The notes beneath the pieces are model-generated. The model did no database searches. It was not told where the DNA came from and was given only the letters and a program-made list of their open reading frames with translations. 64,000 nt of DNA from Squalus acanthias. Its lineage: Eukaryota. Positions within the stretch are counted from its first letter, which is position 1. Each line of letters begins with the position of its first letter. This document shows, piece by piece, positions 768 through 61,700 of the stretch. The DNA lies in the NCBI GenBank assembly GCA_030390025.1, contig CM059431.1:97218001-97282000 (forward strand). Reading direction: 5' to 3'. The translations under genes were made by a program, and so were the position numbers.

Positions 768-2564
768 TGGGGAGATTATCAGGCATACTTCCCTTATTCG
801 GAGCCATGATTACATTGGTCTCGATTAATGTGAACGGACTGAGGGGTGAGAAGAAATTGCAGCAGTTGTTGCAGTTTTAAAGGCACTGACTTGTTGTGTC
901 TGCAAGAAACCTTTTGGGATGAGGATATCCTAGAAAGAGTTCGGAAGGTTTGGAAGGGAGAGGTGTTTGTAAGTTGTGCAAACAATAACCGTAGAGGGGT
1001 GGCTGTACTGGTGAGTCCGTCCATAAAAGAGAATGTTGCCTTGGTGGACAAGGACACTGAGGGGAGATTTTTAAGGCTAAGAGTAAAAATGGAGGAATTT
1101 AATTGCGATCTCTTTAATATCTATGCACCGAATGACCATTGCAAGCGTCGTGAGTTTTTTCAGGGGTTATTCACTGAAGTAGCAGAGGTGGAAAATCCTT
1201 GTATAGTGGGGGATTTTAATGTATTTTTATCTCGGATGGACATTTCAGCCCAGATGACCTTTAAGGATGATAACTCCAGAGGGATGATTGTAAAAATGAT
1301 GGCAAATTTAAATTTGAGAGACTTATGGAGGGACCGGAACCCCATAAAAAGGGAGTTCTCCAGAACAGGTTGGGTGGGTGATGTTTTAAAACAGAGCCGA
1401 ATAGATTTTGTGTTAATACGGGAAGGGTTAAGTTCTGAGGTGATGGAGATTTATTACAAAAAAGTATATTTTAGTGACCACTTGGCTTTGGTTCTTAGAA
1501 TTAGGAACAGCAGAGTTAAGATCGGTTCAGGGGTGTGGATTTTAAACAATCAATGCATGAAAGAAATTGCTTATAAAGAAGGGATTTTAAATATAATAAA
1601 GAATGCTCAGAAGGAACCTTTGTTCTTGAAAGAAAGAAGAGTTTGGTGGGACAATTTCAAATATGAGGTAAAAGTTTTTTCGGTACATTATGGGAAAAAG
1701 AGAGCGGCAGCTAACTGGTGTCGAGAAAAGAATATAAACAAAAGGTTTACGGATGTCTGTAAAGCAGTTGACGGAGGGGATAAGGGAGCTGAGACTAAGT
1801 TCCGGGTGTTAAAGGAAGAGTGGGAATTATTGCAAGCTGAAAAATGCAAGGGGGCCATTCTCCGTGCAAAGGCTAAAGATGCATTGGAGGGCGAAAGATG
1901 CACGAGATATTTTCTAGAGCAAGAGAAGCTGCGACAGAGATTATCATTAATTGGAGAGTTGAAGGTTGGGGAGAAGATCATGAATGAAAGTGGGGAGATT
2001 TTAGAGGCGGCTAGCAGCTTTTATCAAGAGTTATATACAAAAGAAGACATTTCCAATTTGGCGTTGGAGAAGGTTAGTGCTTTTATTGAAGAGGGTTTAA
2101 AGGAGGATGAGAGAAGCATGTGTGACAAAGAAGTAGGATCAGCGGAAATAAAAGTTGCAATAAGTGGAATGAAGGGGGGAAAAGCCCAGGGTCCGATAGA
2201 CTAAGTGCAGAATTTTATAAAGAATTTTTTGAGATTTTAAGTCCATTGCTCTTAGAGGTTTTGATTAAAATTGAGGGAAGCCTGGCCCCATGTATGAGGA
2301 GAGGTGTCATAAGCTTATCTTATAAAAATAAAGGGGATAGAAGAGATCTGAAGAATTGGAGGCCCATCACATTATTAAATGTGGATTATAAGATCTTGGC
2401 GAGGGTTATGGCAAATCGTATGAAGGAGGTGTGGCCGCGGATAGTTTTGCCCTCTCAGTCCTATGGAGTCATAGGCCGGGACATCGCAGACTCTGTGATC
2501 TCAATTCGAGATGCGATTGAGCTCATGGAAGAGAGTGGGAGGGAGGCTCATGTATTAAAGATAG

Positions 2565-2845
2565 TCCAAAAATGTGCGGGTTAGGTTGATTTGGCTATGA
2601 TAAATTGACCCTTAGTGTTAGGGGGGTATTAAATATGTGGGGTTATGGGGATAGGATGGGATATGTTAGGGGGAATTAAATACGTGGGGTTACGGGGGTA
2701 GGGTGGGATATGTGTACTGTGGGGATTAAAGCAGGGACAGGGTACTGGATTTGGATGATCAGCCATGATCGTATTGAATGGTGGAGCAGGCTCGACGGGC
2801 CGAATGGCCTACTCCTGCTCCTAGATTCTATGTTTCTATGTTTCT
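2565..2845 (+). mobile_element. 5'-truncated V-SINE (HE1-like) with CR1-derived 3' tail, inserted in the Tx1 RT
   Basis: Starts with V-domain-like TCCAAAAATGTGCGGGTTAGGTTGATTTGGCTATGATAAATTG. Ends with the CR1-type tail GGCCGAATGGCCTACTCCTGCTCC and (TTCTATGT)n. Splits the codons ATA G|AT CAA. Confidence 0.75.
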
Positions 2846-3931
2846 ATCAAGAGAAAGCCTTTGATAGGGTCTCTCGTGAGTTTTTATTGATGGTTTTGGA
2901 AGCATTTGGTTTCGGGGGAAATTTCATTGAGTGGATAAGGATTTTTTATTCAAACATATTTAGCTGTGTTAAATGTAATGGTTTTTTATCCAAGTATTTT
3001 CCGATACTGAGGTCAGTGAGACAGGGTTGTCCCCTATCCCCATTGGTAGCAGAACCATTAGGTTACATGATGCGAAAGAAACAAGGTGTAGTTGGGATTG
3101 CGGTTCCCAGTTCCGGGCTGGTGTCGGTGATACACCAGTATGCAGATGACACAACCTTAACATTGAGAAATGGGGAGTCAGTGAGGAAAGCTATGGACAT
3201 AGTGGAGGAGTATTGTAGAGCTTCAGGAGCCAGAGTGAATTATAGTAAGTCCCAATGCCTGGTTGCAGGAAGGGGTAGGGGGGAATGGTTGGAGGAAAGT
3301 CCCTTTAAGGTGGTGGAGGTTTTGGAAGTTCTGGGGGTGCATATGGGGTGCAAGAAAGACAGGGATGAAGTGGATCGATTAAATTGGGAACCAAAGGTTG
3401 TGAAAATTAAAAAGATTTTGGGAAGATGGGAAAGAAGGTGGTTGAAAGTGCAAGGAAGAGCGACAGTGGTGTCCACTCTCCTGCTATCTAAGCTATGGTA
3501 CTTATTGACGGTGGAGGATATTCCTGAGTGGGCGGAAAAGTCCATCCGAGAGGCTTGTGTGAGGTTTTTATGGAAAGGGAAACCAGCCTTGGTTGCTTAC
3601 AATACCATCATTGGACGGAGAAATCAGGGAGGACTCAATTTCCCAGATATTGATTTGAAGAAAAAATCCTTTAGAATCAAATGGGTGAAGAGATTTCTTC
3701 AGAAGTCAAATACAAGTTTTTGGAAGAGTTGTTTCGAGCATTTTTTTAAATGAAGTGGGATAGGAGGGCAGGGGATATTGTATATGGAATACAATAATAT
3801 GTTTTTGAAATTGATTAAACCTCTCCCTAGGTTTTATAAGCCATGATGCGGAGATGCCGGTGTTGGACTGGGGTGGACAAAAATGAGAAGTCGCACAACA
3901 CCAGGTTATAGTCCAACAGTTTTATTTGAAA

Positions 3932-3968
3932 TCACAAGCTTTTGGAGCGCTGCTCCTTCGTCAGGTGA
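3932..3968 (-). ncRNA. Minimal hammerhead motif, mutated (GAAA to AAAA, G12)
   Basis: Mirror copy of 3978-4014 with a CpG-type transition in the conserved GAAA. Confidence 0.7.
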
Positions 3969-3977
3969 AGTGGCACT

Positions 3978-4014
3978 TCACCTGACGAAGGAGCAGCGCT
4001 CCGAAAGCTTGTGA
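3978..4014 (+). ncRNA. Minimal type I hammerhead ribozyme motif, intact core
   Basis: TCAC-CTGACGA-A-GGAGC-agc-GCTCC-GAAA-GC-TT-GTGA: stem I TCAC/GTGA, 5-bp stem II, palindromic AGCT stem III. Confidence 0.8.
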
Positions 4015-5280
4015 TTTCAAATAAAACTGTTGGACTATAACCTGGTGTTGTGCGACTTCTCATTTAGGTTTTATAAGGGGGTTGTAGAGACTTGGGCCCA
4101 ATTTTTAAAAAGTGTGCAGTTTATGCCCAAGGTTGCTGAGGAATTTTTAGAACAGCCCTTATTTTTGAACAGGTGGGCCAACATTGAAGGAGAGGTATTA
4201 TTTAATCAAGCTTTTATAAAAGCTGGTATTATACGTGTGAAAGATGTATTATACGAGGTAATTCCAGGTTGGTTGCCGGAAGCGATAGTGAGGGACATGG
4301 TGTGGGAGGAGGATCAGGAGGTAGAGGAAAAAGCAATAGGGATCATGTATGAGAAGATTGTGAGGGCAATGCCACAGGATTGGATGGAAGAAATAAATGC
4401 GGAAATCTCCAAAGGAAGTAAAATGCGTCCCGCTTTGCCAAGCTTTCTGCTGGAGAAAGGGGGAGAGTTGGTCTAACTTGACAACTGTAATACTCGAGAT
4501 TTCTATGAGGTATTTAGGGAATGGAGATTCAAGACACCTGCTGGTCAGGAGTTTTGGCAGAGTATATACCCACAGCTGGACTTCAACAGAATTTGGAAGG
4601 GAGTGTGGGTGAATTTTAAATGTCCAGAGTGGATTGAACTGGATTTCAAATTGGCTCATAACCGGATTTTTACCATGACGGTCTTGTGTAAGATTGGACG
4701 AGTGGAGGGGACAACTTGCCCAGTGTGTGGGACGCGGGCTGAGACTCTGTCTCATTTACTGGTGTTATGTCTGCAGTTAAATGATTTTAAGTACGATGTT
4801 CGACAGTTGTGTGAAGTTTTTTTGCTGGGTGGGGACCGAAGAGCGAGAATGGGAATCCCGTGGGACTCAATTTTGAGATGGGGATTTCAGGAGAGTCTGC
4901 CCGAGTCTAGTGGAGCGGCAATTAATTTAATGTTCAGTTTGGCTAGATTCGTGATTGTGCAAAGAAGGAATGCTCTGTTTTTTAAGGGGAGGAGAGTCCA
5001 TCTAAAAGAGTATTTTAAATATAAGCTAAAAGATCATTAGAAGGCTTTGTGGATGTTTTATTCAGAAAGGAATTTAAAGATAGTATTTTACGATCAATTT
5101 TTAAAGTACAATCGATTAATATATGTTACGGGAGACAAATTAAACTTCAGGTTTTGATGGTAATATATGGTGGAGGAATGGCTGTGCAGAGCGGCGGAAT
5201 TGATTTGTATGATACAATGGAATGAACACGATGTTGTAAATGTTCTTAATGTTCAATAAATAATATAATAATTAAAAAAA

Positions 5281-10631: not shown

Positions 10632-11091
10632 CCACAAAAGCAAAATACTGTGGATGCTGGAAATCTGAAATAAAAACAGAAAATGCTGAAATACTCAGCA
10701 GGTCAGGCAGCATCTGTGGAGAGAGAAACAGTTAACGTTTCAGGTCAATGACCTTTCGTCAGAACTGGAAAAAGTTAGAGATGTAACAGATTTTAAGCAA
10801 GTGCAGAGGCAGGGAAAGCGGGGAAGGGAGGAAAGAATAAAAGGGATGGTCTGTGATAGGGTGGAAGGCAGGAGAGATTAAATGACAAAGGGGATGATGG
10901 CACAAAGATCAAACACGAGAAGGGAAACAGAAAGCAATGAAGATGAACACGGTAAAAGAGACAAACGGAAATCCCGTCGGAGAGAAGAGCAGAACTTCTT
11001 CAAGGTGGGCATTCCTGGAAGAGAAGTGGCAGTGAATTAAACACTAACACAAAAGTAAAATACTGCGAATGCTGGAAATCTGAAATGAAAA
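10632..11091 (-). mobile_element. Internally deleted Penelope-like element with direct pLTR ends
   Basis: CACAAAAG.AAAATACTG.G.ATGCTGGAAATCTGAAAT occurs at 10633 and again at 11048. Homologous to the pLTR at 56825-57240. TSD CTATCG (10626-10631, 11092-11097). Confidence 0.8.
10729..10767 (-). ncRNA. Minimal type I hammerhead ribozyme motif, intact core
   Basis: Minus strand: CAGTT-CTGACGA-A-AGGTC-att-GACCT-GAAA-CG-TT-AACTG. Confidence 0.85.
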
Positions 11092-55940: not shown

Positions 55941-56921
55941 TATGATTGCGGAAAAACAAGAATTACAAAGGATGTAGAAGTAAGGGAAGGGGTGGCCTTT
56001 GAACTGAATGCAAGGTTATAGAGAAACAGGTAAGAGAAGAAATTGGGGTGACAAGAAAAAATGAAGATGGATACAAGAGCAGATGCAAAAATAAACTAAA
56101 AAAATACGATTAGGAGATAGATTGTAAATTGACAACTATTTAAAGATTTTTACCAAGGAGAAGAATAAGAAAGTGTCATCCACCATCAAACAGACATCAT
56201 GTGTGCTCCAGAATATCGATGTTAGGGAAGCAGAGGTTCTACACAGGTGGCAGAGGTCAAACCAATACATTTCCACAGTGTGCTGAGGGAGACAAGGGAA
56301 TCAATTCTAAATGACCAAATGCAGCTAACGGTCGTTTGTATCATCAAAAAGGGAGGCAGAGCCACAGATGGCACTAATGTCCCACACCTGGCCTTACACA
56401 CCCACACCTGTCCTTACACACTCACATCTGGCCTTGCACACTCACACCTGGCCCTTACACCCACACCTGGCCTTACACACCTACACCTGGCCTTACACAC
56501 TCACATCTGGCCTTGCACACCCACACCTGGCCCTTACACACCTACACCTGGCCTTACACACCTACACCTGGCCTTACACACCTACACCTGGCCTTACACA
56601 CCCATACCTGGCCTTACACACTCACACCTGGTCTTATACACCCACACCTGGACTCACACACTCACAATTGGCCCTCAGAACACACACCTGGCCTTATGCA
56701 CCCACACCTAGCCGTACACACCCACACCTGGCCTTACACACTCATGCCTGGCCCTCACACCCACACCTGGCCTTAAACACCCACACCTGAGCTTAAACAC
56801 CCACACCTGACTTTACAGACTCACGATAGCAAAATACTGCGGATGCTGGAAATCCAAAATAACAACAGAAAACGCTGGAAAAACTCAGCAGGCCAGGCAG
56901 CATCCATGGAGAGAGAAACAG

Positions 56922-56958
56922 AGTTAACGTTTCAGGTCGAAGACCTTTTGTCAGAACT
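56922..56958 (-). ncRNA. Minimal hammerhead motif, mutated (CTGACGA to CTGACAA, G8)
   Basis: Mirror copy of 58719-58755 with a CpG-type transition. Confidence 0.7.
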
Positions 56959-57318
56959 GGAAAAAAGCAGGAAATGAAATAGATTTAAAGCAAGTTTAAT
57001 GCTGGGTAAAGGGGGAGGGGATGAAAGAACAAAAGGGAAGGTCAGTGGTAGGATAGAAAGCAGGAGAGATTAAGAGACATTGAGAGACATTAAGAGATAT
57101 TCAAGGCAAGAGGAGGTGGTAATGTGACAGGTTGAGGCTAGATGAAGTGTGAAATGCGCTGGCAGAATGAAGGACAGCTGCCAGCTTCTGGGAGGGAAGA
57201 AAAAAGGCCAAACAAAAAGGTGGATGAAAAAAAAAATATATATATATCTGTGATGGGGGCCGGGGTTATGATCTGAAATTGTTGAACTCTATGTTGAGTC
57301 CAGAGGGCTGTAGAGTGC

Positions 57319-58410
57319 CTAAACGAAAGATGAGGTGCTGTTCCTCGAGCTTACGCTGAGCTTCCGTGGAACAGTGTAATAGGCCGAGGACGGTGAGGTC
57401 AGAGTGGGAGTGAACGGAGAATTAAAGTGACAGGCCACCGGGAGCTCAGGGTCCCCCTTACGGACTGAACGGAGGTGTTCCGCAAAGCGGTCACCCAATC
57501 TGCGTTTGGTCTCTCCATTGTAGAGGAGACCACATTGTGAGCAGCGAATACAGTATACTAAATTGCAGGAAGTACAAGTAAATCGCTGTTTCACCTGGAA
57601 GGGGTGTTTGGGGCCCTGGACAGTGGGAAGGGGGGAGGTATAAGGGCATGTGTTGCATCTCCTGCGCTTGCATGGGAAGGTGCCGGGCGAAGGGGAAGGG
57701 GTGCTGGGGGTGGTAGAGGAGTGGATTAGGGTGTCGCGGAGGGAGCGTTCCCTGTGGAATGCTGAAAGGGGAGGTGAGGGGAAGATGTGTTTGGTGGTGG
57801 GATCACGCTGGAGGTGGCGGAAATGGCGGAGGATGATCCGTTGAATGTGGAGGATGGTGGGGTGAAAGGTGAGGACAAGGGGAACTCTATCGTGGTTCCG
57901 GGAGGGAGGGGCAGGGGTGAGGGCAGAAGTGTAGGAGATAGAACGGACACGGTCGAGGGCCGTGTCAACCACAGTAGAGGTGAATCCTCGGTTGAGGAAA
58001 AAGGAAGACATGTCGGAAGCACTAGTATGGAAGGTGGCATCGTCGGAGCAGGTGCGGCAGAGATGGAGAAACTGGGAGAATGGAATAGAGTCCTTACAGG
58101 AGGCGGGGTGGGAGGAAGTGTAGTCCAGGTAGCTGTGGGAGTCAGTGGGCTTGTAGTGAATGTTTGTCAATAACCTATCCCCAGAGATGGAGACGGAGAA
58201 GTCGAGGAAGGGAAGGGAAGAGTCGGAGATGGACCATGTGAAGGTGAGGGAAGGGTGGAAATTGGAAGCATAGTGAATGAAATTTTCTAGTTCAGGGTGA
58301 GAGCAGGAGATGGCACCGATACAGTCATCAATGTACCGGAAAAAGAGGTGAGGGAGGGGACCCGAGTAGGACTGGAACAAAGAGTGTTCCACATATCCCA
58401 CGAAAAGGCA
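57319..58410 (-). pseudogene. Penelope RT C-terminal half plus GIY-YIG endonuclease (partial, frameshifted near the end)
   Basis: FRYIDD, LPFLD, YKPTDSHSYL..SSHP, CxxxxCxxC linker, NLVYCIRC..C..LYNGET.R.L..RF.EH. Confidence 0.92.
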
Positions 58411-58718
58411 TGGGTCCAAGCTATGCCTGCCTTTTAGTGGGATATTTTTTCATCCACCCTTTTGTTTGGCCTTTTTTCTTCCCTCCCAGAAGCTGGCAGC
58501 TGTCCTTCATTCCGCCAGCGCATTTCACACTTCATTTAGCCTCAACCTGTCACATTACCACCTCCTCTTGCCTTGAATATCTCTTAATGTCTCTCAATGT
58601 CTCTTAATCTCTCCTGCTTTCTATCCTACCACTGACCTTCCCTTTTGTTCTTTCATCCCCTCCCCCTTTTCCCGGCATTATACTTGCTTTAAATCTATTT
58701 CATTTCCTGCTTTTTTCC

Positions 58719-58755
58719 AGTTCTGACGAAAGGTCTTCGACCTGAAACGTTAACT
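58719..58755 (+). ncRNA. Minimal type I hammerhead ribozyme motif, intact core
   Basis: AGTT-CTGACGA-A-AGGTC-ttc-GACCT-GAAA-CG-TT-AACT. Confidence 0.85.
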
Positions 58756-61700
58756 CTGTTTCTCTCTCCACGGATGCTGCCTGGCCTGCTGAGTTCTTCC
58801 AGCGTTTTCTGTTGTTCTTACAGACTCACACCTGGCCTTACAGACTCACACCTGGCCTTACAGACTCACACCTGGCCTTACAGACTCACACCTGGCCTTA
58901 CAGACTCACACCTGGCCTTACATATCCACACCTGGCCTTACAGACTCACACCTGGCCTTACAGACTCACACCTGGCCTTACAGACTCACACCTGGCCTTA
59001 CACACTCACACCTGGCCTTACACACTCACACCTGGCCTTACACACTCACACCTGGCCTTACACTCTCACACCTGGCCTTACACACTCACACCAAGCCTTA
59101 CACATCCACACCTGGCCTTACACATCCACACCTGGCCTTACACACTCACACCTGGTCTTACACACTCACACCTGACCCTCACACCCACTCCGGGCCCTCA
59201 CACCCACAGCTGGCCTTACACACGCACACCTGGTCTTATACATCCACACCTGGCCATACACACCCAAACCTAGCCTTACACACCTACACCTGGCCCTCAC
59301 ACCTACACCTCGACTCACACACTCACATCTGGCCCTCAGACACACACCTGGCCTTACACACCCACATCTGGCCTTACACACACACCTGGCCTTACACATC
59401 CACACCTGGCATTACACCCCCACACCTGGCCTTACACATCCACACCTGGCTGTACACACCCACACCTGGCCGTACACACCCGCACCTGGCCCTCACACCC
59501 ACACCTGGCCTTACACACGCACACCTGGCCTTACACACGCACACCTGGCCTTACACACGCACACCTGGCCTTACACACGCCCACCTGGCCTTACACACCC
59601 ACACCCGGCCTTACACACCCACACCCGGCCTTACACACCCACACCCGGCCTTACACACCCACACCCGGCCTTACACACCCACACCCGGCCTTACACACCC
59701 ACACCCGGCCTTACACACCCACACCCGGCCTTACACACCCACACCCGGCCTTACACACCCACACCCGGCCTTACACACCCACACCCGGCCTTACACACCC
59801 ACACCCGGCCTTACACACCCACACCCGGCCTTACACACCCACACCCGGCCTTACACACCCACACCCGGCCTTACACACCCACACCCGGCCTTACACACCC
59901 ACACCCGGCCTTACACACCCACACCCGGCCTTACACACCCACACCCGGCCTTACACACCCACACCCGGCCTTACACACCCACACCCGGCCTTACACACCC
60001 ACACCCGGCCTTACACACCCACACCCGGCCTTACACACCCACACCCGGCCTTACACACCCACACCCGGCCTTACACACCCACACCCGGCCTTACACACCC
60101 ACACCCGGCCTTACACACCCACACCCGGCCTTACACACCCACACCCGGCCTTACACACCCACACCCGGCCTTACACACCCACACCCGGCCCTCACACCCA
60201 CACCCGGCCCTCACACCCACATCTGGCCTTACTCACCCACACCTGGCCCTCAGACCCAAAACTGGTCTTACACACCCACACCTGGACATACACACCCACA
60301 ACTGACCTTACACACCCACACCAGTCCATACACACACACCTGGCCCTCATACCCACACCTGACCATGCAACTCACACCTGGCCTTCAGACACATACCTGG
60401 CCTTACACACCCACACCTGTCCCTCAATCACACACCTGGCCTCACACACTCATGCCTGGCTCTCTCACCCACAGCTGACCTTACACACTCACACCTGGTC
60501 TTATGCATCCACACCTGGCCCTCACAACCACACCTGGCCTCGCACACTCACACCTGGCCCTCAGACACACACCTGACCTTACACACCCACACCTGGCCCT
60601 CAAACACACACCTGGCCTTACACACCCATACCTGGCCTTACACACCTACACCTGGCCTTACACACCCACACCTGGCCTTACACACCTACACCTGGCCTTA
60701 CACACCCACACCTGGCCCTCACACCCACACCTGGCCATGCAACTCACACCTGGCCTTCAGACACACACCTGGCCTTACACACTCACACCTGGCCCTCACA
60801 CACACACCTGGCCTTACACAAACACACCTGGCCCTCACACCCACATCTGGCTTTACACACTCACATCTGGCTGTACAAAACCACACCTGGCCTTACACAC
60901 TCACACCTGGCCTTACACATCCACAGCTGGCCTTACACACCCACACCTAACCTTACACACCCACACCTGGTTCTCACACTCACACCTGGCATTACACACC
61001 CACACCTGGCCTTACAGACTCACACCTGGCCCTTTCACCCACACCTGGCTTTACACACTCACACCTGGCCATCACACCACACCTGGCCTTACACACCCAA
61101 ACCTAGCCTTACACACCCACACGTGGCCCTCAGACCCAAAACTGGCCTTACACACCCACACGTGGCCTCGCACACTCACACCTGGCCCTCAGACACACAC
61201 CTGACCTTACACCCCACACCTGGCCCTGCACATCTACACCTGGACTTACACACCCACACCTGGCAGTACATAACCACAACTGGACTAAAACACCCACACC
61301 TGGCCCTCACACCAACACCTGGCCTCGCACACTCACACCTGGCCCTTTCACCCACACCTGGCTTTACACACTCACACCTGGCCATCACACCACACCTGGC
61401 CTCGCACACTCACATCTGGCCCTCAGACACACACCTGGCCGTACACAGCGACATCTGGCCCTCAGACACACACTTGGCCGTACACAGCGACATTTGGCCC
61501 TTTCACCCACACCTGGCTTTACACACTCACACCTGGCCATCACACCACACCTGGCCTCGCACACTCACATCTGGCCCTCAGACACACACCTGGCCATACA
61601 CAGCGACATCTGGCCCTCAGACACACACCTGGCCGTACACAGCGACATCTGGCCCTTTCACCCACACCTGGCTTTACACACTCACACCTGGCCATCACAC

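Follow-up and report, generated by a model that had tools for sequence, protein, structure and literature searches.

The palindromic insert located at positions 3841–4065 of the window, by which is meant the whole 64-kb stretch analysed, is in our judgement fairly likely to be the smallest form of an ordinary endonuclease-positive PLE insertion, made anew at its landing site by reverse transcription up to the 5' end of the RNA. An earlier note on this DNA had placed two origins side by side, a dedicated non-autonomous MITE-like family and the minimal product of PLE integration; the connection to PLEs and the second of these origins are supported here, and the first is disfavoured. The anatomy of the insert, its target-site duplication (TSD), the empty site, the high copy number of the family, the clustering of its ends and the variety of the junctions are observed directly, and the features are listed in Table 1.

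Table 1. Features of the palindromic insert, its host site and other PLE copies in the window
Feature	Position	Strand	Remarks
Decayed LINE ORF2 (AP endonuclease and RT), the host	843..5040	+	PF03372, PF00078; the insert breaks it downstream of the RT domain
Left TSD	3828..3840	+	13 bp, AT-rich; empty site in X8 contigs; LINE frame restored
PLE tail	3841..3880	-	40 bp, on one side only; covers both putative RT start sites; family 3' ends cluster at 3840-3843 and 3874-3886
Only ATG of sense arm plus tail	3842..3844	-	flanked by A (-3) and G (+4); the PLE ORF may start here
Left arm	3881..3972	-	inverted pLTR segment, sense on the minus strand
Left minimal hammerhead	3932..3968	-	core G12 changed to A at 3943; predicted inactive
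Centre base	3973	.	G; mismatches the commonest upstream family base in organism A
Right arm	3974..4065	+	direct pLTR segment lacking the tail; ends at the tail-base 3' end of the family, as does the second copy at 31824
Remnant of Inr-like motif	3974..3979	+	putative transcription start A3975 (mirror 3971); the lost upstream bases are taken from loose ends
Minimal type I hammerhead, intact	3978..4014	+	4-bp stem I, extra A after A9, 5-bp stem II closed by G-C, GAAA, palindromic AGCU replacing stem III
Right TSD	4065..4077	+	T4065 shared with the right arm
Second copy of the same PLE family	31773..31824	+	52 bp, non-palindromic; 14-bp TSD (31759-31772 / 31825-31838); same 3' end as the right arm
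Second PLE family	~56813-58829		12-bp TSD, extension on the left only, 375-bp inverted arms; inside a tandem-repeat array

The two arms are 92 nt each with a single mismatch (3943) and flank G3973, and because T4065 belongs to both the right arm and the TSD the insert measures 224 or 225 bp. The longest hairpin arm among 100 shuffles of the region 3000–5000 was 13 nt against the 92 nt observed, none of 200 shuffles was equally stable when folded (z = -25.9), and the probability of the 13-mer repeat at a given site is 7e-8, and a chance origin is therefore excluded. The longest open stretch in any frame of the insert is about 57 codons, in agreement with the absence of coding sequence given in the earlier note, and the arms of 92 bp about the single base 3973, the one-sided extension of 40 bp and the TSD of 13 bp that it had described were all recovered.

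Excision of the insert together with one copy of the TSD restores the reading frame of the host LINE, and nine contigs of the public run X8 pass from position 3840 directly to the sequence of 4078 onward, which constitutes the empty site in related LINE copies; the 13-bp repeat is therefore a true target-site duplication. A class II MITE was rejected, the tail being present on one side only and the TSDs being 13 and 14 bp in two copies of the family. The window is rich in decayed LINEs, with an RVT_1 match in six and an AP endonuclease match in three of the 14 ORFs scanned, and the region 50638–51375 matches a GDSL esterase, a domain that some LINE ORF1 proteins possess as well.

A scan with the hammerhead core pattern matched the right arm only, where cleavage is predicted after position 4010, the site at which the earlier note had correctly placed it. 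The sole mismatch between the arms converts the core GAAA to AAAA in the arm that is sense on the minus strand (G12A). G12 of the hammerhead is the general base, and the left hammerhead should be inactive because the change removes it. The base at this position is intact in 91, 95, 89 and 100% of the depth in the four runs compared, and the change is therefore a private CpG-type mutation of this copy. The minimal hammerhead that had been claimed for each arm is thus present in the right arm, but the core pattern fails in the left one, and to speak of two hammerheads overstates what is there, as one of them carries G12A and the two lie on opposite strands and are never both sense in one transcript. 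On each strand a single hammerhead is in sense orientation and follows its own antisense arm, and the arrangement on opposite strands makes a dimer in cis within a single transcript impossible. The hairpin of the full insert (-170 to -180 kcal/mol) is predicted to bury the sense hammerhead, with a probability of the closing pair of stem II of about 1e-17 to 1e-19 against 0.14 in the isolated arm, which bears out the competition between hairpin and ribozyme fold that had been proposed. For the wild-type hammerhead a dimer-like fold gave -20.7 and the best cofold -30.5, energies that are uninformative since the model cannot score the catalytic core. The Rfam hammerhead models gave no match at gathering score in the 64-kb window, and the matches to MIR6425, SscA and mir-282 that appeared at a relaxed E-value were rejected, since all of them score far under the gathering threshold and are accounted for by the hairpin. 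The pLTR brings the hammerheads along as passengers.

Two further observations concern ribozymes. In run X1 one joint stops at 3935, which mirrors the base immediately past the predicted cut, and two contigs of run X15 go loose at 3934; this hints faintly at an origin of some copies from cleaved RNA. Elsewhere in the window, 32960–33034 matches the model of the HDV-like CPEB3 ribozyme with 35.9 bits against a gathering score of 35 bits, and is possibly an HDV-like ribozyme linked to a retroelement.

Contigs of four of the 24 listed public runs, two from organism A, one from organism D and one RNA-like, were aligned to positions 3700–3995, and runs X17–X20 (5–8% of words) were left out of this contig comparison. 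The family to which the arms belong has a very high copy number, with a summed depth in the millions in the DNA runs against about 7–30 for single-copy-like pieces; summed depth over-counts and has edge effects, and all depth figures are therefore rough. Among the 24 listed of the 445 loose-end rows, the 3' ends of the family cluster at the tail end (3840–3843) and at the tail base (3874–3886) in all four runs. In the three DNA runs, X1, X4 and X8, the loose ends show that the family sequence runs on upstream of 3972, and the arms are therefore pieces of a longer pLTR. The fourth run, X15, which is RNA-like and may be DNA, contains arm and tail and no centre-crossing contig, where hairpins may drop out and contigs indicate presence only. 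Exact-pattern scans of metagenome, viral and prokaryote collections gave no loci, and an autonomous ORF for RT and GIY-YIG with the same pLTR was not found in the 64-kb window or in the prokaryote, viral and metagenome collections.

Contigs that cross the centre have a summed depth of about 3,900 in X1, 12,600 in X4 and 680 in X8, which corresponds to 6.7, 4.4 and 0.09%, respectively, of the depth at 3972, and the centres of palindromes fall repeatedly within about 4 nt of 3973, with a depth hundreds of times that of single-copy pieces. The aligned stretch holds only this centre, which favours the detection of junctions near 3973 over that of symmetric centres at other places. At least five types of junction are found, namely the -4, -2, -1, +1 and same-length forms. 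The junction that is shorter by 4 nt makes up 79% (X1), 30% (X4) and 20% (X8) of the centre-crossing depth, and the other small indels, among the 12 listed of 15 indel rows, make up 8, 13 and 24%; same-length junctions are the remainder by subtraction and reach 57% in X4. Random centres, which the earlier note had regarded as the sign of independent truncations, are not what is seen, since the centres recur near 3973, but they do so with several different junctions. Ends at 3970–3971 are present also in two of the five joints between opposite strands and in four of the 11 rows of a further table of joints, and the remaining three joints between opposite strands are centred asymmetrically at unrelated places, with a low depth (21–33). 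Asymmetric inversions (3880/3971, 3883/3970, 3914/3948 and 3919/3956) are found as well.

Recurrence of the centre within a few nucleotides at such depth could be explained by a dedicated non-autonomous palindromic family, in which full-length transcripts of one or a few masters would be retrotransposed in trans with the help of a PLE protein, and non-autonomous derivatives of PLEs exist according to two reports (PMC8557442; bioRxiv 10.64898/2026.07.22.740005). The dominance of one junction in X1 makes a master-derived family possible, and both this dominance and the share of same-length junctions in X4 count against assembly anew, as a master copy could give both. We nevertheless regard a dedicated family as quite unlikely, since there are several types of junction, the centre is crossed by only a small part of the depth at 3972 in each of the DNA runs, the short arm stops at the generic 3' end of the family, which would be needless for a master copied through, the TATA-like motif described below is excluded from the element and the hammerhead is predicted not to fold in the full insert. 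A fixed centre is possible without a palindromic master because the junctions vary and the same 5' end-point occurs in joints that are not palindromic. It also seems improbable that a subset of the palindromes is self-propagating, with a master of fixed junction giving rise to a nearly perfect 92-bp hairpin RNA that is moved whole by a PLE protein and whose hammerhead is silenced by the mirror arm, although the present data leave the prevalence of one junction in X1 unaccounted for.

The recurring centre is probably the 5' end of the RNA, i.e. a transcription start, as judged from motifs in the family sequence. The sequence of the family across the centre, read by hand from the loose ends, is T/C-C-A(+1)-C-T-T-C, which fits the Inr consensus YYANWYY with the A at 3975. 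In the X4 consensus the TATA-like TATATATG is located at -30 to -23, the textbook position of a TATA box, and the X8 consensus, which is shorter, has TAAG at its end in that register. Both motifs were noticed after the fact, and the TATA motif is full in one of the three DNA runs, partial in one and absent from the X1 consensus, which agrees with that of X4 only to 0.56–0.61. A start in the pLTR has been described for PLE transcripts (PMC2377424; PMC6765202), and a TATA box together with a TCACT Inr has been reported from a pLTR in rotifer PLEs (PMC3846280). Two other causes of the centre were rejected, the hammerhead cut because it lies 36 nt downstream, and a splice acceptor because this place lacks the AG that the second PLE family has. 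An untemplated G is the mark of a capped 5' end in insertions of L1 and SVA (PMC4859970), and G3973 might perhaps be untemplated or derived from a cap, a suggestion that is weak because organism D has that base templated.

If the RNA had no defined 5' end, the symmetry would have to come from a chance match between two random 5' truncations, or from stalling of the RT at the hammerhead. Such truncation or stalling agrees with the presence of other, asymmetric centres at single-copy depth and with an end-point directly 5' of hammerhead stem I, but an RT would be expected to halt after traversing the stems and not before, the same end-point is found in three DNA runs from two organisms and also in tandem joints, and promoter-like motifs lie upstream in register, and we consider this explanation very improbable. 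With a transcription start at the centre the TATA, being upstream, would be absent from the insert; the hairpin locks the hammerhead on both strands, and one of the cores has since mutated. For these reasons the insert was most likely dead on arrival and is probably inert.

We infer a start site at the centre, two priming events and not one, and a PLE protein as the mobilising agent. A putative GIY-YIG endonuclease would make a 13-nt staggered cut in AT-rich DNA, and the pLTR part of the PLE RNA would serve as template for the extension of both DNA ends, from 3841 at the tail end and from 4064/4065 at the tail base; these priming points would correspond to the two internal sites of RT start known from Poseidon_Ac. 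The two cDNA copies should halt at a common point about 90 and 131 nt upstream because the 5' end of the RNA would lie there, probably at a TATA–Inr start, and the two copies would then be joined head to head with small variation at the junction. Such a scheme would give a recurring centre, varied junctions and a tail on one side only, without the need for a palindromic master.

The arms carry the same alleles at all polymorphic sites, which fits equally well a single priming event, and the main rival of the two-primer scheme is for this reason one where the cDNA started at the tail end self-primes or turns at the 5' end of the RNA and itself serves as template for the second arm, the endonuclease then trimming the product at the tail base. 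The insertion would also in this case be made anew each time, and the difference lies only in the synthesis of the second arm. Arms that are equal in length and identical but for one CpG-type change are what such a turn should produce, self-priming has been proposed for palindromic junctions (PMC3846280) and resolution by the endonuclease for the tail (PMC8557442), and the short arm ends in ATT, the motif that the anole enzyme prefers to cut (PMC11167929). However, the junction loops of 1 nt should be hard to reconcile with self-priming, the asymmetric inversions occur too, and in vitro the RT starts at both tail boundaries and on either strand (PMC11167929), so that we hold a fold-back to be rather unlikely, and extension of both DNA ends is preferred.

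Other PLE copies are present in the window, and the 52-bp copy and the second PLE family serve as local controls. In the non-palindromic 52-bp copy of the same family, bases 1–5 might represent a minute inverted segment initiated at the tail base, although five bases are too few for a judgement. The second PLE family has the same layout of TSD, tail and inverted arm as the palindromic insert, together with a partial RT/GIY-YIG-like ORF at 57322–58449 on the minus strand, which resembles PLE RT/GIY-YIG proteins in an Atlas search and has no match in Pfam, and a hammerhead core at 58723. Further fragments of this family are located at 10634–11092, with a hammerhead core at 10738–10762 on the minus strand, and no TSD of at least 8 nt was found at these fragments. 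At 58690–58722 and at 10763–10800 a pyrimidine tract with an AG two bases before the hammerhead core resembles a splice acceptor, and a splice acceptor at helix I has been described for Penelope of D. virilis (PMC4209133).

The element itself is ordinary and there is no evidence for a new ribozyme system, and the existence of a non-autonomous family does not follow from a fixed centre alone. Its value is that of a simple handle on PLE integration: if the centre is the transcription start, each copy of about 225 bp records both RT start sites, the geometry of the cut and the 5' end of the RNA, and hundreds of such copies in one genome could separate the two-primer scheme from a fold-back by sequence alone. 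From the palindromes a simple product can likewise be predicted for the in vitro system that exists for PAc. A link between the recurring centre and a start site was not found in the full-text literature searched, which lacks most subscription journals, Repbase entries and the figure supplements of PMC11167929, whose Fig. S2 on genomic ends may be relevant here.

The architecture of the insert is already in print. In PMC8557442, PLE insertions are described with an adjacent inverted, 5'-truncated copy and a tail of 30–40 bp at one end, and how PLEs make the inverted repeats and the one-sided tail is named as an open question there; head-to-head palindromic junctions and TSDs of 8–10 bp have been reported from PLEs as well (PMC3846280). 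Like these endonuclease-positive insertions of the Penelope/Poseidon type, the insert has a TSD, a one-sided tail of that length, an inverted 5'-truncated copy placed head to head and a palindromic junction, and the pLTR contains a hammerhead and TATA- and Inr-like motifs. It differs in having no ORF and no tandem copy, and in that both halves are cut to the same point, which gives a symmetric palindrome of 92-bp arms with a recurring centre.

Dual minimal hammerheads about 100–700 bp apart on opposite strands were reported in 2014, and scattered motifs were linked to truncated PLEs (PMC4209133). The minimal hammerheads of metazoan PLEs in that report share with the present ones a short helix I, an extra base between A9 and G10.1, the G10.1-C11.1 pair and a palindromic stand-in for helix III, whereas the cores are here only about 18 nt apart, one has G12A, and helix II has 5 bp compared with 7–8 bp in Schistosoma. 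The non-LTR retrozymes, as portrayed in bioRxiv 10.64898/2026.07.22.740005, are likewise non-coding, derived from PLEs and borne by vertebrates, with a type I hammerhead; an identity with them was rejected because retrozymes are head-to-tail tandems with two hammerheads on the same strand, while the copies here are head to head with one sense hammerhead per strand.

The closest parallel to the proposed priming is Poseidon_Ac of the green anole, in which, according to the text of PMC11167929, the tail is the sequence that two internal RT start sites enclose, cleavage and extension affect both strands of the DNA, the protein is predicted to be dimeric and insertion in vitro does not require the hammerhead. 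The insert resembles it in the two putative RT start sites that bound the tail, in the AT-rich target and in the hammerhead located just upstream, and differs from it in that the ORF of Poseidon_Ac starts inside the hammerhead, whereas the first ATG is here found at the tail end. Short symmetric palindromes or their centre are not described in that text.
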